A stretch of DNA of 32,268 nt from Candidatus Limnocylindrales bacterium (lineage in GTDB: Bacteria > Chloroflexota > Limnocylindria > Limnocylindrales > CSP1-4). The notes beneath the pieces are model-generated. The model had not been told where the DNA came from. It made no database searches and saw only the letters and a program-made list of their open reading frames with translations. This document shows, one piece after another, positions 1 to 24,166 of the stretch (position 1 is its first letter; each line of letters begins with the position of its first letter). Both the position numbers and the translations under genes were made by a program. The DNA is taken from the NCBI GenBank assembly GCA_035759195.1, contig DASTVH010000216.1, positions 1 to 32,268 of the forward strand. The letters run 5' to 3'.

Positions 1-155
1 CGACCGGCCGGCTCGTCGGCGGCCTCGGCCTCGCCAGGGTCGTCGTCGGCGCCGGCGCCGGCGGCCCCGAGAGCATCGAGCACGGGTGCCGCCTCCTCGG
101 CGGTGAGGCGTCCCTCGGCCACGAGCCGGAGGACCTCCTCGACGGGATCAGACAT
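1..155 (-). CDS. SHOCT-like helical protein, N-terminal fragment (continues beyond window start)
   Basis: The ATG at 155 overlaps the stop of the upstream gene by 8 nt (ATGTCTGA). Translation is MSDPVEEVLRLVAEGRLTAEEAAPVLDALGAAGAGADDDPGEAEAADEPAG.... The 'L..L.EG.L...EA' helix is the same motif as at the C-terminus of the preceding protein. GC3 is high in this frame. Confidence 0.55.
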   Translation of the reverse strand, partial: MSDPVEEVLRLVAEGRLTAEEAAPVLDALGAAGAGADDDPGEAEAADEPAG

Positions 156-1858: not shown

Positions 1859-4800
1859 ATGACCGCCGATTCCGATCGAACCGGGGACTCGCCGGGCGAC
1901 GGCGCCCCGCCCGGCGCCGAGGCGACTGTCGGCGGGCGCGCGCAGGAGCGTTCTCCCCGCCCCGCCGCCGGCGGGCGCGGCCGGCCGGCCAAGCTTCTGC
2001 CACCGGCCGACCCGTTCGGCACCCTGTCGCGGCCCGCCCTGGAAGCCCGCCTCGCCGAAGGCGCCAGCCGGCGGCTCACGATCCTCGTCGGCGGCGCCGG
2101 CTTCGGGAAGTCGACGCTGGCCGCCCGGATCGCCGACTCCCGCCCGACCGCCTGGTACACGCTGGACGCCGCCGATCGCCACATCGGCGCGCTCGCCGCG
2201 GGCATCGTTGCCGCGCTGCGGGTCCGGCTCCCGGACCTGTCGGAAGACCTCGCCGACCCGGTGGCGAGCTCGATCGAGGCGAGCGACGACGCGGCGATCC
2301 TCGCCCAGTCCAACGCTGCCGCGGCGCTCGTCACCGACGCCGTCGCGGGCACGGTCGCCGAGCCGCTCGTGCTCGTCCTCGACGATCTGCACGTGCTCGA
2401 CGGCGCACCCGGAGCGTGGCGCTTCGTCGAGGCGCTCGTCCGCCTCGCGCCGCCCGACCTGCACCTGCTCGTGACCTCGCGGACCGAGCCGCCGTTCGGC
2501 ATCGAGCGGCTCCGCGGCCAGGGCCAGGTCCTCGACCTCGGCGGAACGTCTCTCGCCTTCAGCGTGGACGAGATCGCGGCGCTCCTCGACGTCCTCGTCG
2601 GCGCCGGGGCCCTGGACGCGGACGCCCGGAATGCAGCGGCGGGGCGGATCCATGCCTCCACCGGCGGCTGGCCTGCGGCCGTTCGGCTCGCGGTCGAGGC
2701 GTACCGGACGGCACCGGCCGGCGCGCGCGACCTCGTGCTCGACCGCCTCCAACACCCGGAGGGACCGATCTTCTCGTACCTGGCCGAGGAGGTCGTGGGC
2801 CGGGCCAGCGAGACGACCCGCGTGCTCGTCCGTCACGCCGTCCATTTCGAACGGTTCTCGGCACCACTCCTCGCGGCCGTCGGCGTTCCTCGTCCGGAGC
2901 CGACCCTCGAGGAGCTGGCCCGCAGGGCGCTGTTCCTCCAGCCGCTCCCGGGCGAACCGGGCTGGTACGCCCTCCACGGGCTCATCCGCGAGTACGCCCT
3001 CGCCCGCCTGCCGCTTCCACCGGACGAGGTGCGCGTCCTTCGCCGGAAGGCCGCCGACTGGTTCGAACGCGAGGGCCTCGTCGACGCGGCTCTCGATTCC
3101 ATCCTCGAGGCCGGCGACCCGGCCGCCCTCGCCCGGTTCCTCTCGGCCCACGGCGGGGGGCTCGTCCTTGCCGGGTCGACGCGCCAGGTCGTCGAGGCCG
3201 CCCGGCTCTTGCCGGCCGCGCTTCGCGACGCGCCGATCGAGCGGGCGCTCGGCGAGGCGTGCCTCGCCCGGGGCGAGTGGCGCGAGGCGATCGCCGCGTT
3301 CGAGCGGGCCGCCGGTCGGAGCGGCCGCCTCGACGCGGCCGCGGCCTGGCGGATCGGCGTCGTCCACGGCGTCCGGGGGGCCTACGACGCGGCGCTCGCG
3401 GTCTACGAGCGGGCGGAGGTCGACGGCAGCCAGCCTGCCGACGAAGCCCTCCTCGACGCCTGGATCGCGTCGGCCCACGCCCATCGGGGCGACGTCGAGG
3501 CGAGCCGGGTCGCCGCGGAGCGAGCCGTCCAGCGGGCCACGGCCTGCGACGATCCGCGAGCCCTCGCCGCGGCCCACACCGCCAGGGGCATGAGCCACGA
3601 GCTGGCGAACGACCCGGTCGGTGCGGCCGCCGAGTATGCCGCGGCCCTCGCCGCGGCGGAGCGGGCCGGCGACGCGCTCCAGATCGCCCGGATCCGCAAT
3701 GCCCGCGGCGCGCTCGAGCTCGACAGCGGCAACTTCGAGGCCGCCCTCGAGATCCTCGACGCGGCCGTCCGCCACGCCGACACCATCGGCTTCGCGGCCT
3801 TCCATGCCCGGGCCCTCGTGAACCGCGGGCGGGCCAAGCAGGGCGTGGGCCGGTTCGAGGAGGCGATGGCCGACTTCACCGCGGCGCGGGCGATCTACGA
3901 GCGGATCGGTTCTCCGTCGGTCGCGCTCGCGTTGACCCGCGAGGGCTCGCTCCACGCCCTCCGCGGCGATGCGTTCCTCGCCCGTTCAGCGTTCGAGGCA
4001 GCCGTCCGGGCCGCCCGCGACGCCGCCGACAGCCAGGCGCTCGCGCCGGCCCTCGTCGGGCTCGCCCAGTCGGTCGCGGCCGACGACCCGACGCAGGCCC
4101 GGGAGCTCACCGAGCAGGCGATGGCCCTCGGGCGCGACGTGGCACCCATCACGATCCTGCTCGGGGCGAGCCGCGTCGCGCTCGCGGTCGGCGACCGCGC
4201 GACGGCCGAGCAGCATGCGGCGGAGGCGATCGCCGTCGCGCGGAGCCGGCGGGACGACCCCGGCATGGCCGCCGCCCTCGAGCTGGCGGCCCTCACGTCG
4301 ATCGATCACGACCGGGCGCTGGACCTCCTCGGCGAAGCCGTCGAGATCTGGCGACGATCGCCGGCGCCCTACGGCTACGCCCGGAACCGGCTCATCTTCG
4401 CCCGGATCGCCGGCGGCGAAGCGGGCCGCGACGCCGCCCTGGAGGCCGAGCGGATCTTCCGCTCGATCGGGGCCCGCGGGCCGGCCGCGGACGCCGCCGA
4501 GATCGTCGAGGCCATCTCCCGCGCGGCCCGGCCCGTCCTCCGGATTCAGGCGCTCGGACGATTCCGGCTCGTCCGCGACGGCGAGGTCGTGCCGACGACG
4601 GCCTGGCAGTCGAAGAAGGCACGCGACCTGCTCAAGATCCTCGTCGCCCGCCGCGGCCGGCCGACGACCCGCGACACGTTCTTCGAGCTGCTCTGGCCCG
4701 ACGAGGACCCCGAGCCCCTCGGCAACCGCCTGTCGGTGGCGCTCGCCACGGTTCGCTCGGTCCTCGATCCGGACAAGGCCTACCCGGCCGAGTATTTCGT

Positions 4801-5326
4801 GCCGGCCGACAAGAGCGCGATCTCGCTGGACCTCGAACACATCGACCTCGACGTCGAGACGTTCCTTGCCGAGGCGGCTGCGGCCGCCCGGCTCGCCCGC
4901 TCGGGCGACCGGGCCGGCGCCCGGACCCACCTCGAGATCGCCGAGGCGCTCTACGGCGGGGACTTCCTCGAGGAGGATCCCTACGAGGACTGGGCGGTCG
5001 GGCTGCGGGAGGAGGCGCAGGCGACCTACATCGCGATCGCCCGCTCGCTGGCCGAGGCCGCAGCGGCCGACGGCGACGCCGACGGAGCGACGCGCTACTA
5101 CCTCCGGATCCTCGAGCGCGATCCGTACGACGAGGGCGCCCACCTCGGCCTCGTCGCCGCGCTCGTCGCGGCGGGCCGGCACGGCGAGGCACGGCGGCGC
5201 TACGGCTTCTACGCCGGGAAGATGGAGGAGATCGCGGTCGAGGCCGCGCCGTTCCCGGCGTCGCCGGGCCGCCCGACGGGCAAGGTCGCGTCGCGACCCT
5301 CGAGCCTTGCGGTGGCCCCCGGCTGA
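1859..5326 (+). CDS. MalT-type STAND P-loop NTPase - TPR - C-terminal SARP (OmpR-type wHTH + BTAD) transcriptional regulator
   Basis: Walker A is LTILVGGAGFGKSTLA and Walker B is LVLVLDDLHVL. The MalT-like arm reads LHLLVTSRTEPPFGIERLRGQGQVLDLGGTSLAFSVDEIAALL. A long Ala/Arg-rich TPR-like helical repeat region follows. The C-terminus reads LRIQALGRFRLVRDGEVV...WQSKKARDLLKILV...LWPDEDPEPLGNRLSVALATVRSVL (SARP wHTH) plus ALYGGDFLEEDPYEDWAVGLREEAQATYIAI...YYLRILERDPYDEGAHLGLVAAL (BTAD). Confidence 0.85.
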   Translation: MTADSDRTGDSPGDGAPPGAEATVGGRAQERSPRPAAGGRGRPAKLLPPADPFGTLSRPALEARLAEGASRRLTILVGGAGFGKSTLAARIADSRPTAWYTLDAADRHIGALAAGIVAALRVRLPDLSEDLADPVASSIEASDDAAILAQSNAAAALVTDAVAGTVAEPLVLVLDDLHVLDGAPGAWRFVEALVRLAPPDLHLLVTSRTEPPFGIERLRGQGQVLDLGGTSLAFSVDEIAALLDVLVGAGALDADARNAAAGRIHASTGGWPAAVRLAVEAYRTAPAGARDLVLDRLQHPEGPIFSYLAEEVVGRASETTRVLVRHAVHFERFSAPLLAAVGVPRPEPTLEELARRALFLQPLPGEPGWYALHGLIREYALARLPLPPDEVRVLRRKAADWFEREGLVDAALDSILEAGDPAALARFLSAHGGGLVLAGSTRQVVEAARLLPAALRDAPIERALGEACLARGEWREAIAAFERAAGRSGRLDAAAAWRIGVVHGVRGAYDAALAVYERAEVDGSQPADEALLDAWIASAHAHRGDVEASRVAAERAVQRATACDDPRALAAAHTARGMSHELANDPVGAAAEYAAALAAAERAGDALQIARIRNARGALELDSGNFEAALEILDAAVRHADTIGFAAFHARALVNRGRAKQGVGRFEEAMADFTAARAIYERIGSPSVALALTREGSLHALRGDAFLARSAFEAAVRAARDAADSQALAPALVGLAQSVAADDPTQARELTEQAMALGRDVAPITILLGASRVALAVGDRATAEQHAAEAIAVARSRRDDPGMAAALELAALTSIDHDRALDLLGEAVEIWRRSPAPYGYARNRLIFARIAGGEAGRDAALEAERIFRSIGARGPAADAAEIVEAISRAARPVLRIQALGRFRLVRDGEVVPTTAWQSKKARDLLKILVARRGRPTTRDTFFELLWPDEDPEPLGNRLSVALATVRSVLDPDKAYPAEYFVPADKSAISLDLEHIDLDVETFLAEAAAAARLARSGDRAGARTHLEIAEALYGGDFLEEDPYEDWAVGLREEAQATYIAIARSLAEAAAADGDADGATRYYLRILERDPYDEGAHLGLVAALVAAGRHGEARRRYGFYAGKMEEIAVEAAPFPASPGRPTGKVASRPSSLAVAPG

Positions 5327-8153: not shown

Positions 8154-8272
8154 GCCCGCATCGTACGGCGGGCCGGCCCGACCGCGATCGGGAGCAGCCG
8201 CCGCGCCATCGCCGGGCCGCCCGACATGGGCTATGCTCCGGGGGACGAGTGAACGGCGCGCCGGCGGCGCGC

Positions 8273-9601
8273 ATGACCGCCCAGCACCAGGGCCCCGCGC
8301 GCCCACTCCGCGGCCGGCCCGCAGGAGACCAGTTGACCTTCGACTCGCTCGGCCTGTCGGCCGACCTGCTCACGACCGTGGCCGAAGAGGGCTACACCGA
8401 ACCGACTCCCGTCCAGGAACAGGCGATCCCGATCGTCCTGGCCGGCCGCGACATCCTCGCTGCCGCCCAGACCGGGACCGGCAAGACCGCGGCCTTCACG
8501 CTGCCGATCCTCGACCGGCTCCGCCACCACGCGAACACCTCGTTCTCGCCGGCACGCCACCCGACGCGGGTGCTGATCCTCGTCCCGACGCGCGAGCTCG
8601 CGATGCAGGTCGACGAGAGCGTCCGGACCTACGGCCGGACGGTCCCCCTGCGCTCGACGGTCGTCTACGGCGGCGTCCCGATGGAGCCCCAGATCAAGGC
8701 CCTCCGCGACGGCGTCGAGATCCTCGTCGCCACGCCCGGGCGCCTCCTGGACCTCATCGGCCAGCGGGTCGCGAACCTCGGCCAGGTCGAGGTCCTCGTG
8801 CTCGACGAGGCCGACCGGATGCTCGACATGGGCTTCCTGCCCGACATCCAGCGGATCATCGCGCTCCTGCCGGGCCGCCGCCAGAACCTGATGTTCTCGG
8901 CCACCTTCTCCGACGAGATCCGGCGCCTGTCCCGGACGATCCTGCGGGATCCCGCCGAGGTCCAGGTCGCGCCCCGCAACGCGACGGTCGAAGGCATCCG
9001 CCAGCTCGTCTACCCGGTCGATCGCGACCGCAAGGAGGCACTCCTCGCCCACCTGATCCGGACCCAGGACCTGCGCCAGGTGCTCGTGTTCACCCGGACG
9101 AAGCTGGCCGCCTCGCGACTCGCGTCGTGGCTCGATCGAGCCGGCATCGATGCGGTGGCGATCCACAGCGACCGTTCCCAGCCGGAGCGGACGCGCGCGC
9201 TGGAGGAGTTCAAGTCGGGCGAGATCCGGGTCCTGGTGGCAACCGATGTCGCCGCCCGCGGCCTCGACATCGAGGATCTGCCGCACGTCGTCAACTTCGA
9301 GCTGCCGTGGAACCCCCAGGACTACATCCACCGCATCGGCCGGACGGGGCGGGCCGGCGCGACCGGCGACGCGATCAGCCTCGTCTGCATCGACGAAACC
9401 GATCTGCTCCGGGGCGTCCAGCGGCTGCTGCGCAAGGCGATCCCCTGGACGGTCGAGGAGGGATTCGTACCCGATCGGAGCACCGAGCCGCGGCCGCTCC
9501 GGGGCGGGCCCGACACCGGTCGCGGCCGGGGCACCGGACGGGGCATCCACCATCCCCACCGCAAGGTGCCGCGGCGATCGGCGGGCGCGGCGCGCGGCTG
9601 A
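8273..9601 (+). CDS. rhlE: DEAD-box ATP-dependent RNA helicase (RhlE-like) with RG-rich C-terminal tail
   Basis: All helicase motifs are present: Q (TPVQEQAIP), I (AQTGTGKT), Ia (PTRELA), II (VLDEADRMLDMGF), III (SAT), V (ARGLDI) and VI (HRIGRTGRAG). The start is ambiguous between GTG 8249 and ATG 8273. Confidence 0.9.
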   Translation: MTAQHQGPARPLRGRPAGDQLTFDSLGLSADLLTTVAEEGYTEPTPVQEQAIPIVLAGRDILAAAQTGTGKTAAFTLPILDRLRHHANTSFSPARHPTRVLILVPTRELAMQVDESVRTYGRTVPLRSTVVYGGVPMEPQIKALRDGVEILVATPGRLLDLIGQRVANLGQVEVLVLDEADRMLDMGFLPDIQRIIALLPGRRQNLMFSATFSDEIRRLSRTILRDPAEVQVAPRNATVEGIRQLVYPVDRDRKEALLAHLIRTQDLRQVLVFTRTKLAASRLASWLDRAGIDAVAIHSDRSQPERTRALEEFKSGEIRVLVATDVAARGLDIEDLPHVVNFELPWNPQDYIHRIGRTGRAGATGDAISLVCIDETDLLRGVQRLLRKAIPWTVEEGFVPDRSTEPRPLRGGPDTGRGRGTGRGIHHPHRKVPRRSAGAARG

Positions 9602-13482: not shown

Positions 13483-13591
13483 GATGGGGGGACGATAACG
13501 CGCCCGGCCGCCGACCCGGTGGCGAGCGCCCGGTCGGTCGGCGTCCGGAGCGCGGATCTCCGCGTCCGCCCGGGCCAGGTTGGAGGTGTCG

Positions 13592-13957
13592 ATGCTTCGG
13601 TCGATGGGGTTCCTCGGGGTTCGCACCGACGCGTACGAGGCGACGGTCGCGCTCTACCGCGACGTCCTCGGCCTCGAGCCGATCCTCGAGCGGCCCGGCG
13701 CGACCTGGTTCCGGGCGTCGGACGGCGCCCAGGTCCACGTCTACGGCCCGACCGACGAAGACCACGAGTTCTTCGGTCGCGGCCCGGTCGTGGGGCTCGT
13801 CGTCGACGACTTCGACGCGGCGCGGGCCGCGATGGTCGCGGCCGGGATCGAGTTCATCGGCGAGCCCCAGCGTGACGGCGAGTCGGCCTGGAACCACTAC
13901 CGCGGCCCCGACGGCAACGTCTACGAGATCATCGGGCCCGACCGGGACGCCCGGTGA
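13592..13957 (+). CDS. VOC/glyoxalase-bleomycin resistance-family protein
   Basis: GGAGG (13582-13586) lies 5 nt upstream of the ATG at 13592. Translation is MLRSMGFLGVRTDAYEATVALYRDVLGLEP...VHVYGP...VVGLVVDDFDAARAAMVAAGIEFIGEPQ...WNHYRGPDGNVYEI, the typical beta-alpha-beta-beta-beta VOC pattern. Confidence 0.8.
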   Translation: MLRSMGFLGVRTDAYEATVALYRDVLGLEPILERPGATWFRASDGAQVHVYGPTDEDHEFFGRGPVVGLVVDDFDAARAAMVAAGIEFIGEPQRDGESAWNHYRGPDGNVYEIIGPDRDAR

Positions 13958-15204
13958 CGGTGCTCGACGCGCCCGGCCTGCTGCGGGCGGTCGGCCTCCT
14001 GGCCGACGGACCCGTCGTCTGGGGCCGCCCGGTGCGGGCCCCACGGCCCGGCGTCTTCGTCGTCGAGCTGGCGCCGCCGGCCGCGACGGCGCCGATCGAG
14101 CTGACCCGCATCGGCAAGTGGGTCGAGCGCTTCCCGGGCATGCGGATCGACGGACGCCCGGCGACCTCCCGGGCCGTGGCCGCCCGACTCGCCGCCTTCT
14201 GGATCCCCTCGACTTCGGTCCTGTACGTCGGAGCGAGCACCGGCTCGGTGGCCGCACGGGTCGCGTCGATCGACCGGACGGTCCTCGGCGATCGGCGTCC
14301 ACACGCCGGCGGCCACTGGCTCAAGACGATCGCCGGGCTGGAGCGGGCGCGCATCTGGTGGGCCGCCACGGACGCGGTCGAGGAGTACGAGGACGCCCTG
14401 TTCGGCGCGTTCGCCATGGCAGTCCCGGCGGTCGATCGCGAACGCCTCCACGACCCGTCTTCTTTGATGCCGTGGGCGAACCTGAGGACAACCGCCGGCG
14501 AGCGCAAGGCCCACGGTCTCAGCGGGTACCTCGCCGTGGAGGACGCGGCCGCCGCCGCGCCGACGCCACGGATCGTGGACCTCGCGCCGGGTGTGGCGGA
14601 CGGGGCATCCGGGCTGCCGCCGACCCGCGCCGCCGGCGGCACGACCCGGCGAGCTCCCCGACCGACGAGCGGCGCGACGCCGACGCCCCGAACCCGGCCG
14701 GGCCGGGCGGCGAGGCCCACCCCGCCCCGGCCGGAGCCGATCTACCTCTCGGCCGAGGGGATCGAACGCCTGCGGGCCGAACACCGCGAGCTGACCGAGG
14801 TCCGCCGGCCGGAGGTGATCGGGCGGATCAAGGCCGCGAAGGAGCTCGGCGACCTCAAGGAGAACGCCGATTACACCGCCGCCCGCGAGGAGCAGTCGTT
14901 TCTCGAGGGAAGGATCGGGACGATCGAAACCCTCCTCCGGGACGCCACCCTGATCGAGGCGCCGGGCGCCGCGGCGGACGGCAGGATCGACCTCGGGTCG
15001 CGCATCTCGGTCGAGGAGGCGTCGGCGCCCGGCGAGGTGACGGTCTACGAGCTGGTCGGAACGGCCGAGGCGGATCCGGGCGCCGGCCGGATCTCGAACG
15101 CGTCGCCGGTGGGCCGGGCGCTCGTCGGACGACGGGTCGGCGAGACGGTCACGGTCCGGACGCCCCGCGGCGAGGTCGAGTACCGGATCGTCGCGGTCGA
15201 GTGA
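13954..15204 (+). CDS. greA: GreA-family transcript-cleavage/elongation factor fused to a ~260-aa N-terminal extension (GIY-YIG-like motifs + Pro/Arg/Thr-rich linker)
   Basis: The C-terminal ~155 aa form a complete GreA: IYLSAEGIERLRAEHRELTEVRRPEVIGRIKAAKELGDLKENADYTAAREEQSFLEGRIGTIETLL...ISNASPVGRALVGRRVGETVTVRTPRGEVEYRIVAVE. No in-frame ATG, GTG, TTG or CTG occurs in the 24 codons (SGATPTPRTRPGRAARPTPPRPEP) immediately upstream of the GreA domain. The GTG at 13954 overlaps the upstream stop (GTGA). Confidence 0.8.
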   Translation: MTVLDAPGLLRAVGLLADGPVVWGRPVRAPRPGVFVVELAPPAATAPIELTRIGKWVERFPGMRIDGRPATSRAVAARLAAFWIPSTSVLYVGASTGSVAARVASIDRTVLGDRRPHAGGHWLKTIAGLERARIWWAATDAVEEYEDALFGAFAMAVPAVDRERLHDPSSLMPWANLRTTAGERKAHGLSGYLAVEDAAAAAPTPRIVDLAPGVADGASGLPPTRAAGGTTRRAPRPTSGATPTPRTRPGRAARPTPPRPEPIYLSAEGIERLRAEHRELTEVRRPEVIGRIKAAKELGDLKENADYTAAREEQSFLEGRIGTIETLLRDATLIEAPGAAADGRIDLGSRISVEEASAPGEVTVYELVGTAEADPGAGRISNASPVGRALVGRRVGETVTVRTPRGEVEYRIVAVE

Positions 15205-15252
15205 TGGCCCCGGGTGCATCGGGGCCCGGGAGGCCGTGGGGCTCCGGCGACG

Positions 15253-15831
15253 TCAGGCCCGGCGGCCCTTGAGCAGGCTCCAGGCGAGGACCACGACGCC
15301 GATACCGATGAGGACGACCGGCAGAACGTCCGAGCCCACGAGGAACGGCTCCCCGGTGAGACCGATGAGGCCTTCGAAGAAGAGCCCGAAACCCACGAAG
15401 AGCGCGAGCCCGATCCCGAGCATCCGGAGACCGTTCGAGAGGTCCTCGGGCCGGTTGCGGAGCAGCCCGTAGAGCGTCAGCCCGAGGCCGCTGCCGCCCG
15501 GTCCTACGAGCGCCCAGGCGTAGGCCCAGGTCGCCCACAGGTCGGTCGCGTTCTGGACGGCGAGAACGAGGCCGACGGTCGTGACGATGCCGCCGGCGAC
15601 GGCAAGCCCGGAACCCTCACGGCCGCCGGCCGACAGGCCCGCGGCAAAGAGGACGAGCCCCGGGACGATGACGAAGAGCGGCCACCCGAACCGGGCGAGA
15701 TCGAGATCGAGTGCGCGCTCGAGGAGGAAGATCGCTCCGAGACCGATCAGGACGATCCCGATGACGATGCTCGTGCGTCGGGCGTCGCCCGATTCGCCCG
15801 GTGCCGCCGTCTGATCGGGCCCGGAGCTCAC
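15253..15831 (-). CDS. Polytopic membrane protein, LiaF-TM/DUF5668-like
   Basis: The GTG at 15831 lies 4 nt after the stop of the response-regulator gene. There are about six hydrophobic helices, for example SIVIGIVLIGLGAIFLLERAL, WPLFVIVPGLVLFAAGL and LPVVLIGIGVVVLAWSLL. It is the last gene of the kinase operon. Confidence 0.75.
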   Translation of the reverse strand: MSSGPDQTAAPGESGDARRTSIVIGIVLIGLGAIFLLERALDLDLARFGWPLFVIVPGLVLFAAGLSAGGREGSGLAVAGGIVTTVGLVLAVQNATDLWATWAYAWALVGPGGSGLGLTLYGLLRNRPEDLSNGLRMLGIGLALFVGFGLFFEGLIGLTGEPFLVGSDVLPVVLIGIGVVVLAWSLLKGRRA

Positions 15832-15835
15832 GGCG

Positions 15836-16501
15836 TCAGTCCCGGACAGGCTCGGCGAGCTTGTGCTCGACGGCCCAGAGGGCGGCCTGGGTCCGCGAGG
15901 CGAGTCCGAGCTTGCCGAGAATGTTCGAGACGTAGGTCCGGGCGGTCCGCTCGGTGATGAACAGCGCGGAGCCGATCTCCTTGTTGCTCATTCCCTGGCC
16001 GAGCAGCCGCAGGACGTCCTTCTCGCGATCGGTCAGCGGCTCGACCGGCTCGTCCTCGCCGGCCTTGCGGGCCCGCATGCGCTGGGCGAGGAGGCGGGCG
16101 ACCGCCGGGTCGAGGTGGACCTCGCCGGCGAAGGCGGCCCGGACCGCGGTCGCGACCTCCTCGGCCTCCGCGTCCTTGAGGACGTAGCCCGACGCACCGG
16201 CCTCGAGGGCGGCGGTGACCTTCTCCTCCTCGATGAAGCTCGTCATCGTGACGATCTCGGTCTCGGGCCGTTCGGCCTTGATCCGGCCGATCGCCGTCAC
16301 GCCGTCCATGTTCGGCATGAGCAGATCCATCAGGACGACGTCCGGCTGGAGCCGGCGAGCCATCGCGACGCCCTCGCTGCCGTCGGCCGCCTCGCCGACG
16401 ACCTCGATGTCGTCCTGGAGATCGAAGAAGACCCGTAGTCCCATGCGGACGACGGAGTGGTCATCGACGATCAGGACCCGGATCCGGGCGCTGTCGTCCA
16501 C
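15836..16501 (-). CDS. NarL/FixJ (LuxR-type HTH) response regulator
   Basis: AGGAGG lies 4 nt upstream of the GTG at 16501. The REC domain reads IRVLIVDDHSVVRMGL...DVVLMDLLMPNMDG...GASGYVLKD. The HTH reads LTDREKDVLRLLGQGMSNKEIGSALFITERTARTYVSNILGKLG. Confidence 0.9.
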   Translation of the reverse strand: MDDSARIRVLIVDDHSVVRMGLRVFFDLQDDIEVVGEAADGSEGVAMARRLQPDVVLMDLLMPNMDGVTAIGRIKAERPETEIVTMTSFIEEEKVTAALEAGASGYVLKDAEAEEVATAVRAAFAGEVHLDPAVARLLAQRMRARKAGEDEPVEPLTDREKDVLRLLGQGMSNKEIGSALFITERTARTYVSNILGKLGLASRTQAALWAVEHKLAEPVRD

Positions 16502-16604
16502 GTTGCCTCCTGACAGGGTGACCGGCCGGGCCGGCGTGGAACGGTCGCGGGGAGCTATGGTCGAGTCTAGCAAGGTGCGGTCCCTCCAGGGATTCGGTCG
16601 CGAT

Positions 16605-17006
16605 TCAGGCGACTGACGGTCGGGCAGCGGCGACGACCGCATCGATCAGCTCGTGCGGTCGGAAGGTCTTGCGGATGTAGGCATCGGCGCCGTCCAGGGC
16701 GGGAGTCGGCCGGTCGGCAGCGGTCCAGTTGAGGACGACGATGCGCGACGCCGGCGCGACCTCGCGAAGGCGGTCGACGAGGCTCCCGCCGAGGCCGTCC
16801 TCGGGCAGGCGGCAGTCGAGGATGATGACGTCGGGTGCGATCTCCGTGGCGAGCTCGACGGCGCGTTCGGGCTCTCCCGCGCTGCCGACGACGATGCAGC
16901 GACCCCCGATCGGCAGGAGCCGGGCCAGGCTCTCGCGGATTCGGTCGTCCGGATCGACGACCAGGACCCTGAGCGGGGCCGGTGCTGCGTGGCTGGGGTC
17001 GGTCAT
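16605..17006 (-). CDS. Stand-alone receiver (CheY-like) domain protein
   Basis: Translation is LRVLVVDPDDRIRESLARLL...DVIILDCRLPEDG...ADAYIRKTF. The acidic pocket, phospho-acceptor Asp and conserved Lys are in their expected positions, and there is no output domain. Confidence 0.8.
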   Translation of the reverse strand: MTDPSHAAPAPLRVLVVDPDDRIRESLARLLPIGGRCIVVGSAGEPERAVELATEIAPDVIILDCRLPEDGLGGSLVDRLREVAPASRIVVLNWTAADRPTPALDGADAYIRKTFRPHELIDAVVAAARPSVA

Positions 17007-17092: not shown

Positions 17093-20000
17093 TCATTCGG
17101 CCGATGACACGGGCGGGATCGCCGGTTGGGCGGTTCGCGCCCGCTCGATCGCGGCGTCCGGCACGGCGACCTCGATGGTCGTCCCGGCACCCGGCTTCGA
17201 GGTCACCGTGAACGTCGCGCCGACCTTCTCGGCGCGGGCCCGCATTCCGGCCAGGCCGAGATGTCCGTCCGGGACCGCGGTCGCGTCGAAGCCCTTGCCA
17301 TCGTCGACGATCCGCAGGCGGAGGCCCGTCCCCTCGAGGCGCTCGATCGCGAGCGTCACCTGGCGCGCCGCGGCGTGTTTCACGATGTTGTGGAGCGCCT
17401 CCTGGCTGATCCGGTAGAGGACCTCCTCGAGGGCGATCGGCAGCCGTTCGGCCAGGTTGCTCGTCACGACGATCGGCAGGCCGATCCGGCCCTGGAGGGC
17501 CGCCGTGTGGGTCTTGAGGGCGGGCAGCAGGCCGTCCTGCTCGATGTTGCCGGGCCGGAGCTCGAAGATGAGCGCTCGCATCTCCGCGAGCGCCTCGCGC
17601 TGCAGGTCGCGGAGCGAGCCGAGCTTCTCCTTGGCGGCCGCCGGGTCGCGGTCGACGAGCAGCTCGGTCGTCCGGGTCACGAGGGTCATGCTGAAGAGCG
17701 CCTGCGTCACCGAGTCGTGCAGCTCGCGAGCGAGATGGGCCCGCTCCTGGCTCGAGGCCAGCTCGGCGGCCTGGCGGCGCAGGTCGCGCTCATAGCCCTC
17801 GCGCTCGCGCATGTCGCGGATCGAGCCGTGGGCCCCGCCGAACTCGCCGTCGCGGAGCATTCCGGTGAGCCAGACCTCGACCGGCACCGGGTCCCCGGTC
17901 CGCCGGCGGAGGTGGACCTGCAGCGGATGGACGCCGGTCGGGTCGCGGCGGACCGCCTCCCAGGCTGCCTGGGACGCCGCCTCGGCCGAAGGGTCGGTCA
18001 GCAGGCTGAAGTGCTTGCCGATGATCTCGTCGGGGGCGAAGCCGGTGAGCGGCTCGAGCCGGTCGCTGATGAACGTGAAGAGGCCCTTCTCGTCGACCGC
18101 CCAGACGACGTCGGGGGAGGCCTTGACGAGATACCGGTAACGCTCCTCGCTGGCCCGCAGCTGGCGCTCGAGGCGCTCCCGCTCGCGGATGTCGCGGGCC
18201 GAGCCGTGGATTCCGGCGAAGGACCCGTCGACGTTCGTCATGCCGATCGCGTTGACCTCGACCGGGACCCGTTCGTCGGCCCGGTTCCGGAGCATGAACC
18301 GGTGGACCTGCATCCGGGCCGGGTGGTCGACGAACCGCTGCCAGGCGTCGCCGGCCTCGGGGAACGAGTCGAGGTCGATGATCGAGGCGAACTGGGTCCC
18401 GAGCAGGTCGGCCGGCCGGGAGCCGGTGAGGTTCTCGACGGTCTCGGAAAGGTACGTGTAGCGGCCCTCGGCGTCGGTCGAGAACACGACGTCCGGCGAG
18501 TTCTCGACGAGGAATCGGTAGCGCTCCTCCGATTCGCGGAGCTCGCGCTCGAGGCGCTCCCGTTCGCTGATCTCGCGCGAGACGCCCTGGACGCCCATGA
18601 ACCGGCCGTCCTGCTCCACGCCGATCATGCTCACCTCGAACGGGAGCGCGGTGCCCGACGCGGTCGTCAGGCGGATCCGGATCGTCCGGGCGACCGCGGG
18701 CTCGGCGTGGAGGTCGTCCCACGTCCGGGCCGCGAGCTCGCTGTCCTCGGGCGCGACGAAGTCGATGAACGGATGGCCGATGCTCTCCTCGGGCGACCGA
18801 CCGGTGACGAGCTCCGACGACTCGCTGATATAGGACAGGCGGCCGAGACGGTCGATCGAGAAGAGGATGTCCGGCGAGTTCTCGACGAGGAAGCGGTAGC
18901 GCTCCTCCGACTCGCGCAGCTCGCGTTCGAGGCGTTCGCGCTCGCTCACGTCGCGAGCCGAGCCGTGGATCCCCGCGAACACACCGTCGACGACGACGCC
19001 CCGGGAGCTGGCCTCGAACGGGATGTGCCGGCCGTCCTTGTGGATCAGCAGGAGGCGGTTCGTCAGCTCGAGGCTGGGATCGGCCCGGATCCGGTTCCAG
19101 GCAACTCCGGCGGTCGTCGGGTCCTCGTAGAAGATGATGTCGCGGAACGGCCGGCCGACGAGGTCGTCCGGCCGGTAGCCGAGGGCCCGGTCGACGCTCT
19201 CCGACACGTAGACGAACGTGCCGCCCGGATCGATCGAGAAGATGATGTCGGGGGCGTTCTCGACGAGGAAGCGGTAGCGCTCCTCCGACTCGCGCAGCTC
19301 GCGCTCGAGGCGATCGCGCTCGCTCATGTCGCGGACGGAGCCGTTCGCGCCGGCGAAGCGGCCCCCGGCGTCGAGGGTGCCGTAGGCGCTGAACTCGGCG
19401 GGAATCGCGTGACCGTCGCGGTGGAGCAGGTTCAGGCGGCCGCGCAGCTCCTGGAACTCCTCGGTCATGCCCTCGGTCCAGTCGAGCTCGGCGACGTCGC
19501 GCGACGACTCGTGGACGAGCGCCCCGAAGTGCTTGCCGAGCAGGTCCTCCGGGCGCCAGCCGGTCAGGCGCTCGCAGGTGTCGGACACGAACGTGAAGCG
19601 GGCGTCCGCGTCGATCGACCAGATCAGGTCCGGAGAGTTCTGGACGAGGTGGCGGTAGCGGGCCTCCGACTCACCGAGGAGCTCGTAGAGATTCGAGTTC
19701 GTCAGGGCGATCGCCGCCTGGTCGGCGAGGCCCTGGAGCAGGTCGAGCTCGTCGGGCAGGATCTCGCGCGGCTCGCGGTAGCTGATCGCGAGCGTCCCGA
19801 TCACCTCGCCGGCCGGGGCCCGGAGCGGCGCCGCGGCCATCGCCCGCAGCCCCAGCCGCTCGGCGACGAGCTCGTCGTCCTGCTCGTGGGGGATCCGCGG
19901 GTCGGTCCGGTAGTCGGCCGTCCAGACCGGCTGGACCTCCTCGGCAGCCAGGCCGTTGATTCCGCCCCCGAGGGGGAACTGCATCTGCTTCAGCCAGGCC

Positions 20001-23000
20001 TCAGTGCCCTCGTCCATCCCGCCCGCGACGATGACCGGGACGAGATACGTGCCGTCCTCGGCCATTCGGGTCAGGTGGGCGCCGTCCGAGCCGAGCAGGC
20101 GGCGCGACTCCTCGACGACCCGGGCGAGGATCTCGCCGGGGTCGCGAAGCGACGTGATCCGGGCCGTGATGTCGCGCAGCGAGCGCTCGGTCTCGGCGCG
20201 GTACGCGAGCGCGGTCTGGGACCGCTCCAGGGCCTCGATCAGGCGGGCATTCGTGATCGCGATCGCCGCCTGGGTGGCGAGCGAGCGGATCCGGGCGGCG
20301 TCCTCGTCGTCGAACGCGTCGGGCCGCACCGAGTACACCTCGAGGGCGCCGAGCGGACCGGATTCGCCGGTGACCGGGGCGATGATCATCGATCGGAAGC
20401 CGGTCACCTCGAAGAACCGGTCGTTGATCGCCGAGTCCGGGAAGTGCCCGGCGAGGTCGTCGCGGGCGATGACGACGCGGTCCTCGGCGACCGCGAGGCC
20501 GGTCGCACCCACGCCGATCGGGATCGTCAGCTGGGCGATCTCCTCGTCGGTGAACCCCTCGCGCACGCCTGAGTCGTAGGCCCAGCGGACCTGGTGACCG
20601 CTCGCGTCGACGAGGTCGAGGATCGAGCCGTCCGCGTCGACGAGGCGCCGCGCGGCGTCCACGACCTGCTGGAGGAGCGGCCCAGGCTCACGGATCGCCG
20701 TGATCCGCGCGGCGATCTCACGGAGCGACTGCTCGGCCTCGGCCCGGCGGGCCAGCTCCGAGCTCGAGCGGTCGAGCTCCTCGATCAGCCGCGCGTTCGT
20801 GATCGCGATCGCCGCCTGGATCGCGATCGCCTCGATGAGCCGGGCGTCGTCACGGCCCCAGGCGTTCGCCCGTTTGGTATAGATCGTCAGGGCTCCGAAC
20901 GGCCGGCCGCCCTCGCCGAGGAGCGGGGCCGACATCACCGACTGGATGCCGACCTCGCGGACGAAGCCGTCAGGCCCGCTCGAGTGGATGAAGCTGTCGT
21001 CGTTGAGGTAGTCGCCGGTGAAGGCCACCCGGCGCTCCATGACGGCCCGGCCCGAGACGCCCTGGTCGAGGGATTCGTCCGGGGCATCGGGCCAGTCCCA
21101 CGTGCCGGTCGGGGTCGTCGTCGCCGAGTGATAGGCCCAGCGCAACAGGCCCGACTCGGCGTCGATCAGGTCGATCCGGGCCTCCTCCGCGTCGAGCAGC
21201 CTGGCGGCCTCGTCGACGGTCCGCTGGAGGACGTCGCGGGCGCCCTTCGTCGCCGAGATCCGAGCCGCGATCTCACGGAGCGCCTGCTCCTCCTCGGCGC
21301 GGCGGCGGAGCTCGGTCCGCGAGCGGTTCAGCTCGGTGATGAGGCGCGCGTTCTGGATCGTGATCGCGGCCTGGTCGGCGAGCGCCTGGAGCAGATCGGC
21401 CTGAGCGTCGTCGTAGGCGTGCGGGCGGGCGCTGCTCACCGAGATCGCCCCGAGTGAGCCGTGTTCGCCGCGCATCGGCGCCGACAGCACCGAGCGGTAG
21501 CCGGTGGTCGCGACGAGGTCGTCGGAGCGGGGCACATGGTGGAACCGATCGTCGGCGAGGTAGTCGTCGGTCAGGAACCACTCGCCGCGCTCGACGGCAA
21601 GGCCGGCGATCCCCTCGCCGATCTTGAACTGGAGGTCGCGCCCCTCGGCTCGCGTCCGGATCGACATCTCCCCCGAGGCATAGGCCCACGAGAGCGTGTC
21701 GCCCTCGAGGAGGTCGATCCGCGCGGCGTCGGAGTCAAGGAGGCGGCGGGCCTCGTCGACGGTCTGCTGGAGCACGGCGTCGGGATCCCGAATCGCCGAG
21801 ATGTTCGCCGCGATCTCGCGCAGCGAACGCTCGGCGTCGGCCCGCCGGCCGATCTCCTCCCGGGACCGGCCGAGCTCGTCGATGAGCCGGGCGTTCTGGA
21901 TCGCCACGACCGCCTGGTCGGCGAACGCCTCGATGAGCGCGGCGTCCTCGTCGTCGTACGCGTCGCGGCGGACCGTCGCGACCTTGAGCACGCCGAGCAG
22001 CCCCTCGCCGCTGATGAGCGGCGTCGCGACCGTCGAGTGGAGGCCGGTCTGGCGGACGAACTCGTCGGATGCCTCGACGTGGATGAAGCGATCGTCGGTC
22101 AGGTAGTCACCGGTGACGATCGCCCGGCGCCCGGCGATCGCCGGCCCGTTGATGCCCCGGTCGCCGGGCAGGCCGGTGGCTGCCTGCGGGCCGGCCGCCC
22201 CGAGGTCGCCCTCGCCGGCGACGTAGGCGCGCCGGATCAGGCCGGTCTCGGGATCGACGAGGTCGAGCTGGGCGCGCTCGGCGTCGAGCAGGCCGCGCGC
22301 CGCCTCGACGACCTGCTGGAGGAGGTCGGCCGGGTCGCGGATCGCGGTGATCCGGGCGGCGATCTCGCGAAGTGCCTGCTCGGCCCGGGCCCGCCGCCGA
22401 ATCTCCTCGCGAGAGCCGGCGAGCGCCTCGATGAGCCGGGCGTTCTGGATCGCGATCGCGGCCTGGTGGGCGAGTGCCTCGACGAGGGCGACCTCCTCGG
22501 GTTCGAAGGCGCCGGCCTCGGGCCAGCCGACCTGGAGGACGCCGAGGAGGCCCTCCTCCCCGGTCATCGGCGTCACGATCAGCGACCGGATGCCGTCCTG
22601 GCGGACCGCCTCGTCGAGGCTCGGGTCGTGCTCGAAGCCGGTGTCGGCCATGTAGTCCGTGCTCACGACGGTCCGCCCGCTCGCGATCGCCTTGCCCGAG
22701 GCGCCGTAGCGGAACGGCCGGCCCTCGTCGTCGACCGCCGCCCCGCCGATGACATCGCCGGCGCCCGGGACGTAGGTGAAGCCGACCCGACCGGCGGCCG
22801 GCACGACGAGGTCGATCCGGGCCCGGGCCGCGCCGAGGAGGCGGGCCGCTTCGTCGACGACGTGCTGGAGCAGGTCGGCCGGGTCGCGGATCGCGGTGAT
22901 CCGGGCGGCGATCTCGCGGAGCGCCCGCTCCGCGTCGGCCTGGCGGCTGGCGGCGGCCCGCGACCGGTCGAGCTCCTCGATGAGTCGGGCGTTCGTCATC

Positions 23001-24166
23001 GCGATCGCCGCCTGACCGGCCAGCGCCTGGATGAGGTTCGCGTCGTCCTCGCCGAACGCCTCGACCTCGGACGTATAGACGGTCAGCGTGCCGAGCGGTC
23101 CCCGATCGCCGATGAGCGGCACCGCGACGACGGAGCGGATCGCGTGCTTGCGGACGTGTTCGTCGGGCGCCTCGGCGTGTTCGAAGCGGTCGTCGTTGAG
23201 GTAGTCGCCGGTGAAGACCGGACGCCCCTCGCGGACCGCCCGGCCTGAGATGCCCTCTCCGGCCTTCGCCTCGCCGCTGCCGGCGATCGGCCCGAGGCCC
23301 GGCTTGCGGCCGGTCGTGGCGTCGAAGGCCCAGTAGAGCCCGCCCGACGCCTCGTCGAGGATGTCGATCCGGGCGCCGTCGGCCCCGAGCAGCCGGGCCG
23401 CCTCGTCGACGGTCCGCTGGAGGACCTCGTCGGAGTCGTGGAGGGCGATGATCCGTCCGCCGATCTCCCGGAGCGCCCGCTCCACGTCGGCCCGACGCTC
23501 GACGTCGGCCCGCGAGCGGTTCAGCTCCTCGATGAGATCGGCGTTGGCCATCGCCGCCGCGGCGTGGTCGGCCAGCGCGCGGACGAGCGCCACCTCGGCG
23601 TCGCCGAAGGCGTCGGGTCGGCTCGTGAACGTGCCCATCGCACCGAACGTCCGGCTCCCGCTGACGAGCGGAGCGACGACGAACGAGTGGATGTCGAGGT
23701 CGCGGACGAGCCGATCGGCGTCCGGGAAGTGGACGAACGAGGGGTCGTTCGGGTAATCGCCGGTCGAGACCACCTCACCGGTCGCCACGGCCCGCCCGAA
23801 CATCCCCACGCCGACGTCGAGCTGGAGCGAGCGGACCCACGCACGGCGGCGGTCGTCGGTGATGCCGGCATCGTGGGCGAAGCGGAGGACGCCCTCGTCG
23901 TCGAGCAGGTAGGCCATCGCCCCGTCGGAGCGAAGGAGGCGGGCGGCCTCGGCGACCGCCCGGCGGAGGATCGCGTTCACGCCGGAGGCGGCCGGCGCGG
24001 CGGCGAGCGTCTCGGTCGCCCCGGGCGCGTCCGTCGCGGACGAGCCGTCGACCAGGGAGCCGTCGTCGGACGGGCGCTTCCGACCGGGGGCGCGCGCTGC
24101 GGGCTTCTGGCCATCGTCCGGCTCGGGGGGAAGCCCGGCCGGACGCGACGGTCGGGTGGTTGCCAC
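17093..24166 (-). CDS. Soluble giant sensor histidine kinase: 8 x GAF, 5 x PAS, HisKA_3, HATPase_c (2357 aa)
   Basis: No TM segment is present. Eight ~185-aa GAF-like modules are each closed by an NARLIEEL.RSR.E..RRA.AE.ALREIAARI.AIRDP..LLQ.VVDEARRLL linker. Five ~125-aa PAS-like modules are each closed by ERERLERELRESEERYRFLVENSPD. The H-box is LARELHDSVTQALFSM (HisKA_3), the N-box is EALHNIVKHA, G1 is DDGKGFD and G2 is GLAGMRARA. The start (GTG 24166) is uncertain because no RBS is seen. Confidence 0.9.
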   Translation of the reverse strand: MATTRPSRPAGLPPEPDDGQKPAARAPGRKRPSDDGSLVDGSSATDAPGATETLAAAPAASGVNAILRRAVAEAARLLRSDGAMAYLLDDEGVLRFAHDAGITDDRRRAWVRSLQLDVGVGMFGRAVATGEVVSTGDYPNDPSFVHFPDADRLVRDLDIHSFVVAPLVSGSRTFGAMGTFTSRPDAFGDAEVALVRALADHAAAAMANADLIEELNRSRADVERRADVERALREIGGRIIALHDSDEVLQRTVDEAARLLGADGARIDILDEASGGLYWAFDATTGRKPGLGPIAGSGEAKAGEGISGRAVREGRPVFTGDYLNDDRFEHAEAPDEHVRKHAIRSVVAVPLIGDRGPLGTLTVYTSEVEAFGEDDANLIQALAGQAAIAMTNARLIEELDRSRAAASRQADAERALREIAARITAIRDPADLLQHVVDEAARLLGAARARIDLVVPAAGRVGFTYVPGAGDVIGGAAVDDEGRPFRYGASGKAIASGRTVVSTDYMADTGFEHDPSLDEAVRQDGIRSLIVTPMTGEEGLLGVLQVGWPEAGAFEPEEVALVEALAHQAAIAIQNARLIEALAGSREEIRRRARAEQALREIAARITAIRDPADLLQQVVEAARGLLDAERAQLDLVDPETGLIRRAYVAGEGDLGAAGPQAATGLPGDRGINGPAIAGRRAIVTGDYLTDDRFIHVEASDEFVRQTGLHSTVATPLISGEGLLGVLKVATVRRDAYDDEDAALIEAFADQAVVAIQNARLIDELGRSREEIGRRADAERSLREIAANISAIRDPDAVLQQTVDEARRLLDSDAARIDLLEGDTLSWAYASGEMSIRTRAEGRDLQFKIGEGIAGLAVERGEWFLTDDYLADDRFHHVPRSDDLVATTGYRSVLSAPMRGEHGSLGAISVSSARPHAYDDAQADLLQALADQAAITIQNARLITELNRSRTELRRRAEEEQALREIAARISATKGARDVLQRTVDEAARLLDAEEARIDLIDAESGLLRWAYHSATTTPTGTWDWPDAPDESLDQGVSGRAVMERRVAFTGDYLNDDSFIHSSGPDGFVREVGIQSVMSAPLLGEGGRPFGALTIYTKRANAWGRDDARLIEAIAIQAAIAITNARLIEELDRSSSELARRAEAEQSLREIAARITAIREPGPLLQQVVDAARRLVDADGSILDLVDASGHQVRWAYDSGVREGFTDEEIAQLTIPIGVGATGLAVAEDRVVIARDDLAGHFPDSAINDRFFEVTGFRSMIIAPVTGESGPLGALEVYSVRPDAFDDEDAARIRSLATQAAIAITNARLIEALERSQTALAYRAETERSLRDITARITSLRDPGEILARVVEESRRLLGSDGAHLTRMAEDGTYLVPVIVAGGMDEGTEAWLKQMQFPLGGGINGLAAEEVQPVWTADYRTDPRIPHEQDDELVAERLGLRAMAAAPLRAPAGEVIGTLAISYREPREILPDELDLLQGLADQAAIALTNSNLYELLGESEARYRHLVQNSPDLIWSIDADARFTFVSDTCERLTGWRPEDLLGKHFGALVHESSRDVAELDWTEGMTEEFQELRGRLNLLHRDGHAIPAEFSAYGTLDAGGRFAGANGSVRDMSERDRLERELRESEERYRFLVENAPDIIFSIDPGGTFVYVSESVDRALGYRPDDLVGRPFRDIIFYEDPTTAGVAWNRIRADPSLELTNRLLLIHKDGRHIPFEASSRGVVVDGVFAGIHGSARDVSERERLERELRESEERYRFLVENSPDILFSIDRLGRLSYISESSELVTGRSPEESIGHPFIDFVAPEDSELAARTWDDLHAEPAVARTIRIRLTTASGTALPFEVSMIGVEQDGRFMGVQGVSREISERERLERELRESEERYRFLVENSPDVVFSTDAEGRYTYLSETVENLTGSRPADLLGTQFASIIDLDSFPEAGDAWQRFVDHPARMQVHRFMLRNRADERVPVEVNAIGMTNVDGSFAGIHGSARDIRERERLERQLRASEERYRYLVKASPDVVWAVDEKGLFTFISDRLEPLTGFAPDEIIGKHFSLLTDPSAEAASQAAWEAVRRDPTGVHPLQVHLRRRTGDPVPVEVWLTGMLRDGEFGGAHGSIRDMREREGYERDLRRQAAELASSQERAHLARELHDSVTQALFSMTLVTRTTELLVDRDPAAAKEKLGSLRDLQREALAEMRALIFELRPGNIEQDGLLPALKTHTAALQGRIGLPIVVTSNLAERLPIALEEVLYRISQEALHNIVKHAAARQVTLAIERLEGTGLRLRIVDDGKGFDATAVPDGHLGLAGMRARAEKVGATFTVTSKPGAGTTIEVAVPDAAIERARTAQPAIPPVSSAE
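17800..19690 (-). repeat. Intragenic tandem array of 5 PAS modules, period ~375-380 nt (approximate bounds)
   Basis: A conserved ~90-nt linker block recurs near 18130, 18480, 18860, 19240 and 19650. There is a 48-nt perfect direct repeat at 18878-18925 and 19256-19303. Confidence 0.8.
19690..23990 (-). repeat. Intragenic tandem array of 8 GAF modules, period ~543-555 nt (approximate bounds)
   Basis: A conserved linker block (GTGATCCGGGCGGCGATCTCGCG-like, plus strand) recurs at about 20154, 20700, 21255, 21798, 22347, 22896 and 23447. There is a 47-nt perfect direct repeat at 22323-22369 and 22872-22918. Confidence 0.8.

Follow-up and report, generated by a model that had tools for sequence, protein, structure and literature searches.

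A conserved GreA fusion of Limnocylindria carries a tethered N-terminal domain of probable GIY-YIG ancestry

Why would a transcript cleavage factor carry a second folded domain? The factors that enter RNA polymerase's secondary channel (GreA/B, DksA, Gfh1, and TraR) act, to our knowledge, solely on the polymerase active site, and we know of none that carries an enzyme directed against nucleic acid lying outside it. We analyzed a 32,268-nucleotide stretch of DNA (the window), a complete contig from the metagenome-assembled genome of a Candidatus Limnocylindrales bacterium (GenBank assembly GCA_035759195.1, contig DASTVH010000216.1). The organism belongs to Limnocylindria, a class of soil and freshwater bacteria in the Chloroflexota. 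One gene in the window encodes a GreA preceded by an N-terminal domain (ND) and a tether (Table 1). What is this domain, and what might it do on a Gre factor? Judging from sequence, we favor the view that a single polypeptide joins GreA, through a disordered basic tether of 53-103 amino acids, to a divergent GIY-YIG domain of the UvrC/Cho type, which would be held at RNA polymerase and engage nucleic acid there. That preference covers the architecture and a polymerase-tethered, nucleic-acid-engaging GIY-YIG module; catalysis stands outside it and is weighed separately. What is new is a Gre factor with a new appendage, together with a new GIY-YIG family.

Is the extended frame a single gene? 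As the original prediction, made from the letters alone, had claimed, the open reading frame reaches about 260 codons upstream of GreA with no stop and encodes 416 amino acids. Its codon-position GC content (0.75/0.59/0.92) fits this frame in a window that is 73% GC and full of long spurious open reading frames on both strands. Two long open reading frames that overlap the gene in other frames are spurious by-products of the 73% GC, because codon-position GC marks the fusion frame as coding. The GTG start codon of the fusion overlaps the TGA stop codon of the preceding VOC/glyoxalase-family gene as GTGA. Translational coupling to this gene, proposed from that overlap, is credible in the window but fails as a general trait, since the VOC gene is present upstream at only 15/80 loci (a subclade) and lies outside the conserved unit. 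Within the fusion, no in-frame ATG, GTG, or TTG occurs from codon 215 to codon 287, a stretch that includes the 48 codons ahead of the GreA part, twice the 24 originally noted. The GreA part therefore has no start codon of its own.

The same architecture recurs across the class. We surveyed one genome per GTDB species, found 277 genomes with an ND relative, and examined the best 80 at the DNA level. ND and GreA lie in one uninterrupted frame at 72/80 loci, encoding proteins of 397-448 amino acids. Of the remaining loci, one is in frame but cut by a contig end, two end ahead of GreA, and five are frameshifted. A frameshift or stop separating two genes, named in advance as one of the outcomes that would speak against a fusion, is absent from 72/80 genomes. 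Counts out of 73 below refer to the in-frame ND-GreA proteins from these best 80 loci. The surrounding genes are conserved as well: a divergent beta-lactamase-like gene lies upstream at 79/80 loci, and a GerE-type response regulator lies downstream at 57/80. Because the frame is intact in 72/80 and synteny is conserved, the fusion is a vertically inherited core gene of the class Limnocylindria at one syntenic locus, and not an artefact.

An error of assembly or sequencing, a frameshift or chimera joining two genes, is effectively refuted by these data. Many database entries are indeed truncated or frameshifted in the GC-rich tether, but the open reading frame is intact in 72 independent species-level genomes, and the identical protein recurs in independent assemblies; seven further members of the 90% cluster of the window protein, from other assemblies, are also 416 amino acids long. 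Interrupted copies are confined to long-read MFD metagenome-assembled genome (MAG) contigs, which account for all five frameshifted loci, and to contig ends. The loci that are not intact include L026 and L056, at contig ends, with frameshifts among L003, L014, L017, L034, L043, and L044.

The very GC-rich tether is a frequent site of breaks and frameshifts in public assemblies. Such breaks leave many truncated entries ("hypothetical protein, partial") and isolated GreA fragments in protein databases, and the fusion stays hidden from searches at the protein level. Our initial protein search, with ND residues 1-199, returned 245 relatives, all named "hypothetical", all shorter than 350 amino acids, and all from Limnocylindria/Chloroflexota MAGs. 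We rejected the reading of these short (<350 amino acids) hits as free-standing genes beside greA; at the DNA level they are contig-end truncations or frameshifts of the fusion. Many of them (P0005, P0009, P0012, and P0038 among these) stop at contig ends in or just past the tether, with the first GreA helix in frame. Others (P0002 and P0031) are frameshifted, and the syntenic locus of P0002, from a long-read assembly, has a GreA fragment in another frame.

A further possibility is that the cell contains two proteins, with a separate GreA produced by internal initiation or by proteolysis of the tether, so that the fusion would serve co-expression only. The tether is long, of low complexity, and probably accessible to proteases. 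Nevertheless, we consider this very improbable: the start codons that internal initiation would need are missing from codons 215-287, and no Met or Val is conserved at the GreA boundary among the 73 fusions. Moreover, the tether ranges from 53 to 103 amino acids (median 70), so the frame has been maintained through many indels, and unlinked genes would not preserve the frame in 72/80 loci under these circumstances.

Both folded parts of the protein are constrained. Averaged over pairs of the 73 fusions, sequence identity is 64% in ND, compared with 71% in the GreA N-domain and 56% in the GreA C-domain; in the tether it is 35%. ND is thus constrained as strongly as GreA, since its 64% identity compares with 56-71%, and, judged from these identities, the two are under purifying selection of similar strength.

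A few loci stand apart from the typical distribution. One MAG, SMAG_U1272 (DASSPG01), has two differing ND-GreA loci (L041 and L049), one with a VOC gene upstream and one without; both encode Phe at the two positions that are tyrosines in the GIY and YIG motifs. The two loci may be paralogues, or the bin may combine two strains. The fusion also occurs on contigs deposited as Patescibacteria, Verrucomicrobiia, Saccharimonadales, and Thermomicrobiales MAGs (L051, L070, L078, and L037). L051, L070, and L078 have the full-length beta-lactamase-like neighbor, and L070 and L078 also have the response regulator; L037 has only a 64-amino-acid beta-lactamase-like fragment at the end of a 2.4-kb contig. 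All four contigs are probably mis-binned, in the case of L051, L070, and L078 because the synteny of the fusion locus is present.

The C-terminal part of the protein is a complete GreA, as had been recognized from its sequence. Both Pfam domains are present in full, GreA_GreB_N (PF03449; 1.3e-23, model positions 1-70 of 71) and GreA_GreB (PF01272; 2.5e-22, model positions 3-76 of 77), and the protein reaches 159 bits with the NCBIfam GreA equivalog NF001263, whose cutoff is 145, over model positions 6-158 of 160. In Gre factors, the coiled coil enters RNA polymerase's secondary channel, where its acidic tip promotes the cleavage of backtracked RNA. In the window protein the tip is GDLKENADY (residues 299-307), and the form G-D-L-K/R-E-N-x-x-Y is found in 73/73 fusions with D300 and E303 invariant; we take these two residues to be equivalent to the tip acids D41 and E44 of E. 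coli. The GreA module retains the catalytic acidic tip. Because the tip is invariant and the NF001263 score exceeds its cutoff, this GreA looks fully functional.

What is ND? Searches of Pfam, NCBIfam, PADLOC, and PDB sequences returned nothing meaningful for the ND of the window protein, and the profile of a first ND alignment (A1) likewise found nothing meaningful in sequence databases. Comparison of profiles was more informative. Using a 98-sequence ND alignment as the hhalign query, we obtained 74-81% against the single N-terminal sequence of E. coli UvrC and 87.7% (P 3e-6) against a 58-sequence UvrC profile. ND has an insertion of about 46 residues between the GIY and YIG strands, and when its columns were removed the match to UvrC rose to 94-96% (P 8e-9 to 9e-8), with 86% against E. 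coli Cho. Controls were clean: the UvrC profile reached 2-4% when reversed, and none of 20 column-shuffled profiles exceeded 0.6%. An Eco29kI-family protein (encoded at locus L089) gave about 1% and E. coli YhbQ 0.6-4.4%, which supports no relation to either, and the relation of ND is therefore specific to the UvrC/Cho branch. On these grounds, ND is very probably a divergent member of the GIY-YIG superfamily, nearest to the UvrC/Cho branch. Its GIY-YIG hairpin contains a large insertion, and we would class it as a new family of that superfamily.

The alignments place the motifs as well as the domain. With the insertion removed, PGVY falls on PGVY, YIG on YIG, and Arg on Arg; Y91-V-G93 aligns with VIYVGKA of UvrC and R102 with the Arg-helix arginine, and the Glu helix falls on the Glu helix with low confidence. 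The motifs quoted in the original prediction are all present in the window protein, and its GIY-YIG assignment is borne out by hhalign, with PGVF on UvrC PGVY, LYVG on YIG, and R102 and E146 in place. Profile similarity, on which that assignment had been staked, was found at 88-96% against UvrC. Two of its details hold only in part. The terminal Asn, N176, is conserved in 72/73 fusions but is placed by no alignment and was assigned solely from the conserved PFANL motif; the His cluster is present in the window but is only partly conserved within the fusions.

Conservation picks out the same residues. G33, R102, E144, E146, and D147 are 100% conserved in the 73 fusions, E146 lying within E143-E144-Y-E146-D147. 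At the YIG position, Tyr occurs in 65 fusions and Phe in 8, followed by Gly in 72/73. A diverse alignment of the ND family shows no variation at G33 and R102, and conservation of at least 90% at Y91, G93, E146, and N176.

An AlphaFold (AF2) model of ND, built from 44 sequences, is confident (pLDDT 95.3, pTM 0.91; predicted local distance difference test and template modeling scores, respectively). Its predicted elements follow the GIY-YIG order of strand, strand, Arg helix, strand, Glu helix, and Asn, and the insertion is predicted to form a helix, a small hairpin, and a second helix, with W56, R78, and W83 invariant. When the insertion columns were left in, hhalign suggested "FWLP", just N-terminal to YIG, as the GIY strand. 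We rejected this candidate in favor of PGV(Y/F)VV, which we take as the GIY strand because G33 is invariant and the family consensus PGVYVV equals the PGVY of UvrC and Cho. This choice is also preferred because the AF2 model has a strand at residues 33-38 and none at 82-85, and because deleting residues 40-85 raises the score.

Several observations weigh against the interpretation set out above, and the first of these concern the identity of ND. The hhalign relation is carried mainly by about 40 columns around the GIY, YIG, and Arg motifs, and the values of 94-96% depended on removal of the insertion by hand. The ND of the window protein has no above-threshold Pfam or NCBIfam match. The gathering thresholds of PF01541, PF10544, PF19239, and PF20815 (20-22.6 bits) were approached by free-standing ND relatives only, at 13-15.5 bits. 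Despite the confident model, Foldseek found no match in the PDB with E<1; the only broad PDB alignment, a weak one, was to the GIY-YIG restriction enzyme R.Eco29kI, with a best template modeling (TM) score of 0.32. The top Foldseek matches in BFVD were also weak: a phage protein that is uncharacterised (E 0.012), one titled "GIY-YIG domain-containing protein" (probability 0.69), and an "endonuclease" of a phage. These PDB and BFVD matches are suggestive but not significant, so that the structural check proposed with the original prediction yielded GIY-YIG proteins at a weak level only. The sub-threshold Pfam GIY-YIG matches have E values of 0.026-0.37 overall, including, for free-standing relatives, T5orf172 (0.026), PF01541 (0.029), PF19239 (0.064), and GIY_YIG_2 (0.086). 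PHROG 1111, an "endonuclease", matches the free-standing relatives at 0.002-0.003, and all of the sub-threshold Pfam and PHROG matches converge on one motif.

Could ND be a new fold with a short, convergent YIGKA-x-L-x-x-R-like motif? The missing PDB match, the short, sub-threshold character of the Pfam and PHROG matches, and the hhalign values of about 1-4% against Eco29kI-like and YhbQ sequences are what this reading would lead one to expect. We nevertheless judge it distinctly improbable. It sits poorly with the hhalign values of 88-96% for UvrC and 86% for Cho and their clean negative controls, and with a predicted order of secondary structure that is the order of GIY-YIG domains. In addition, the best of the weak fold matches are themselves GIY-YIG proteins or endonucleases, and in a restriction-modification island the family occurs joined to a B3 domain of the kind found in restriction enzymes.

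The remaining points against our interpretation concern activity. The GIY tyrosine is the proposed general base, from structures of Hpy188I bound to DNA, and mutagenesis indicated that folding and/or activity depends on both tyrosines (PMC3045582). In the window protein this residue is Phe (F35), as in 61/73 fusions; Tyr occurs in 11/73, and in five species Phe stands in place of the GIY tyrosine and of the YIG tyrosine as well. Among the fusions, the GIY tyrosine is found mainly in the most divergent, deepest-branching ones; relatives that are free-standing or fused to B3 also have it, and the wider ND-family consensus of PGVYVV keeps the tyrosine that the window protein lacks. Because this tyrosine is Phe, catalysis may be weakened or lost. 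The binding of RNA polymerase by this GreA is assumed from its family membership.

Is ND then a pseudo-nuclease, derived from a GIY-YIG domain and binding only nucleic acid or a protein partner without catalysis? Such a domain might keep GreA close to DNA or nascent RNA, increase its local concentration at transcription complexes, or bring in another factor. We regard this as quite possible, if short of an even chance. The loss of the general-base tyrosine from most fusions, and of both tyrosines from five species, fits such a role, as does the basic character of ND and the tether (pI 9.95 and 12, respectively). Conversely, at least one of the two tyrosines is retained in 68/73 fusions, and an invariant or near-invariant Glu, Asn, and Arg, together with the E144/E146/D147 cluster, would be unexpected in 73 species if the domain served for binding alone. 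As far as its residues indicate, most GreA fusions have departed from the canonical chemistry but keep the residues that bind metal and phosphate invariant. A nuclease that is attenuated or remodelled and a metal-dependent binding module are about equally plausible, and F35 favors the degenerate, binding-only alternative already raised in the original prediction about as much as it favors an active nuclease.

How might a GIY-YIG module on GreA work? We propose that GreA docks in RNA polymerase's secondary channel as ordinary Gre factors do and would reactivate backtracked complexes there. Because the N-terminus of GreA sits outside the channel, the tether would hold ND near DNA or extruded RNA, within reach of the DNA that flanks a paused or backtracked polymerase or the RNA that it extrudes. 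ND could then engage the phosphodiester backbone through a site formed by Arg, Glu, and Asn with a metal ion. Our preferred reading, held tentatively, is that ND may nick a strand beside the stalled polymerase. The fusion would thus be a polymerase-addressed analogue of a GIY-YIG homing endonuclease in which GreA replaces the DNA-binding domain, and nicking might serve transcription-coupled DNA incision or the processing of conflicts and R-loops. This activity would be attenuated, since the GIY tyrosine is Phe in most members. We infer a role in transcription-coupled processing for the fusion, as first suggested for it from its letters. A stronger version, in which the fusion is the sole Gre factor of Limnocylindria and an active nickase delivered to backtracked or lesion-stalled RNA polymerase, so providing an Mfd-independent form of coupling, seems unlikely to us.

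The window protein combines features of several known systems. Like other GreA/GreB factors it has a full-length GreA with a coiled coil, an invariant tip, and a C-terminal globular domain, and it differs from them by an N-terminal extension of about 260 amino acids in which a tether follows a folded nuclease-type domain. In Chlamydiae and spirochaetes, extended GreA proteins (NF004969/PRK06330, 718 amino acids; NF011309/PRK14720, 906 amino acids) also place the Gre module at the C-terminus, and NF004969 bears the title 'transcript cleavage factor/unknown domain fusion protein'. Their N-terminal regions, in contrast, are unrelated to ND: in the window protein the two models find only GreA, through their C-terminal ends, and their scores of 42 and 77 bits fall below the respective cutoffs of 697 and 714. 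Because such extended proteins exist in Chlamydiae and spirochaetes, an N-terminal appendage on GreA is sterically tolerated. We know of no report of a nuclease-type domain in these extended proteins.

The closest detectable relatives of ND by profile are the GIY-YIG domains (PF01541) of UvrC, the 3' incision nuclease of nucleotide excision repair, and of Cho, which share with it the motif order PGVY...YIGKA-x-L-x-x-R...E...N. Unlike them, ND has an insertion of about 46 residues, an extra N-terminal strand-helix unit, a longer spacing from Glu to Asn, and, in most GreA fusions, Phe for the GIY tyrosine; unlike UvrC, it is not followed by UvrB-binding, RNase H-like, or HhH domains. In domain order and modular logic the window protein resembles the homing endonucleases I-TevI and I-BmoI, which have been described as an N-terminal GIY-YIG nuclease, a flexible linker, and a C-terminal targeting domain (PMC3664794). 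It differs from these enzymes in that its address module is an RNA-polymerase-binding factor rather than a DNA-binding domain, and in that the fusion is a vertically inherited chromosomal core gene rather than a mobile element. Literature searches on GreA with GIY-YIG, confined to the searchable library, found no description of the ND-GreA architecture, which the original prediction had likewise not recognized as a described form of GreA. Public annotation names ND-GreA proteins plain GreA (the record of the window protein, NCBI HEU4919854.1, carries just the title "transcription elongation factor GreA"), and no family model exists for ND.

How widespread is ND beyond the fusion? Searching 1.84 billion representative proteins with the ND profile identified 1192 clusters (50% identity) at E<=1e-3 and 855 at E<=1e-10. 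The architectures comprise free-standing proteins of about 200 amino acids, ND-GreA proteins of about 400-480, ND followed by a C-terminal domain (CTD) of about 80 amino acids (CTD-X) or about 90 (CTD-Y), and a few longer proteins. A check on whether ND also occurs as a free-standing gene, suggested at the outset, thus turned up both such genes and other fusions. The free-standing proteins are more canonical, with PGVYVV ... ILYIGKA-x-SLRKRLGQYY. An AF2 model of CTD-Y (pLDDT 90.4) matches plant B3-DNA complexes with a Foldseek probability of 1.00 and TM of 0.55-0.66; its matches to the B3 recognition domains of the restriction enzymes UbaLAI and BfiI are weaker. One ND-B3 gene, P0195 (L089:1787-2785), is followed by genes for an RE_Eco29kI protein, Vsr, a C5 DNA methylase, and an Mrr_cat-SNF2 helicase (L089:2840-8115), an apparent restriction/defence island. 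From its domains, P0195 looks like an undescribed restriction-type enzyme that combines GIY-YIG with B3. The restriction endonucleases BfiI, UbaLAI, and EcoRII also have a B3 pseudobarrel, whereas their catalytic domain is of the PLD or PD-(D/E)XK type and that of the ND relatives would be ND; the window protein has no B3 domain. By analogy with other nuclease modules, ND appears to be used as a modular effector at the N-terminus, joined through a linker to an address domain at the C-terminus. The address domain of the Limnocylindria proteins is GreA, and the target would therefore be RNA polymerase.

Other members of the family are less easily placed. The CTD-X architecture (ND, tether, and CTD-X) is found in P0048 (L001:6001-7041), P0113, and 41 others, with no greA nearby. 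CTD-X carries the motif ...AA.EL...G.L......P..LR.LL..G.I.G..Q....RW.I.C, has no Pfam match and no hhalign relation to the B3 domain, and presumably resembles DNA-binding domains of the excisionase/HTH_17 type. P0215 (559 amino acids) and P0247 (401 amino acids) have extra C-terminal regions of about 190-230 amino acids with no Pfam match. The free-standing ND protein P0209 (203 amino acids; L085-L088) is repeatedly encoded just 3' of genes for a 1233-amino-acid protein with a faint AAA_30 match and a 508-amino-acid protein without a Pfam match. At one locus it lies near a DUF6094/methyltransferase gene, a context that may represent a defence or mobile-element cassette.

Around the fusion gene we found no tRNA, Rfam family, promoter-like site, or terminator-like site, and the window contains no second greA, tRNA, or Rfam RNA. 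The window also encodes a response regulator, which adjoins a large sensor histidine kinase, and three further proteins (Table 1).

Table 1. Parts of the fusion gene and other features of the window. Positions are those of the 32,268-nucleotide stretch.
Feature	Position	Strand	Remarks
Complete ND-tether-GreA gene	13954..15204	+	416 amino acids and stop codon; GTG start
ND, residues 1-196	13954..14541	+	Divergent, probable UvrC/Cho-like GIY-YIG-superfamily domain
Motif positions in ND			GIY = G33-V-F35; YIG = Y91-V-G93; Arg helix R102; Glu helix E146; Asn N176
Insertion, residues 40-85 (~46 residues)	14071..14208	+	Between GIY strand and YIG strand
Tether, residues 197-262 (~66 residues)	14542..14739	+	Low-complexity, basic, Ala/Pro/Arg/Gly/Thr-rich
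GreA module, about residues 263-416 and stop codon	14740..15204	+	Coiled coil with acidic tip, then C-terminal globular domain
VOC/glyoxalase-family gene, 5' of fusion	13580..13957	+	Pfam PF00903, 1.5e-10
Overlapping spurious open reading frame	13872..15272	+	466 amino acids
Overlapping spurious open reading frame	13921..15219	-	432 amino acids
GerE-type response regulator	15836..16642	-	Adjoins histidine kinase
Sensor histidine kinase	17093..24166	-	2357 amino acids; eight GAF, five PAS, HisKA_3/HATPase_c
AAA_16-TPR-BTAD/Trans_reg_C regulator	1859..5326	+	1155 amino acids
DEAD-box helicase	8249..9601	+
DUF4097 "toastrack" protein	148..1206	-

What does the fusion mean for these bacteria and for the ND family? 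The searches define a large, unannotated GIY-YIG family of about 1200 clusters at 50% identity, in which ND would serve as an exchangeable effector attached to B3 and other targeting domains, and part of which lies in restriction/defence islands. In Limnocylindria, automated annotation hides the ND-GreA architecture under the name "GreA". The tethering of a UvrC/Cho-type domain to GreA, kept through the history of the class, implies a selected link between the backtracking or stalling of RNA polymerase and action on the surrounding DNA or RNA. Such a link would bear on transcription-repair coupling and on the handling of conflicts between stalled polymerases and replication; GreA is reported to be genetically implicated in double-strand-break repair and replication-conflict phenotypes. 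If the stronger version held, with the fusion as the sole Gre factor and ND as an active nickase, which we think unlikely, it would represent a previously unknown, Mfd-independent coupling of DNA incision, or of the resolution of R-loops and transcription-replication conflicts, to the state of the polymerase.

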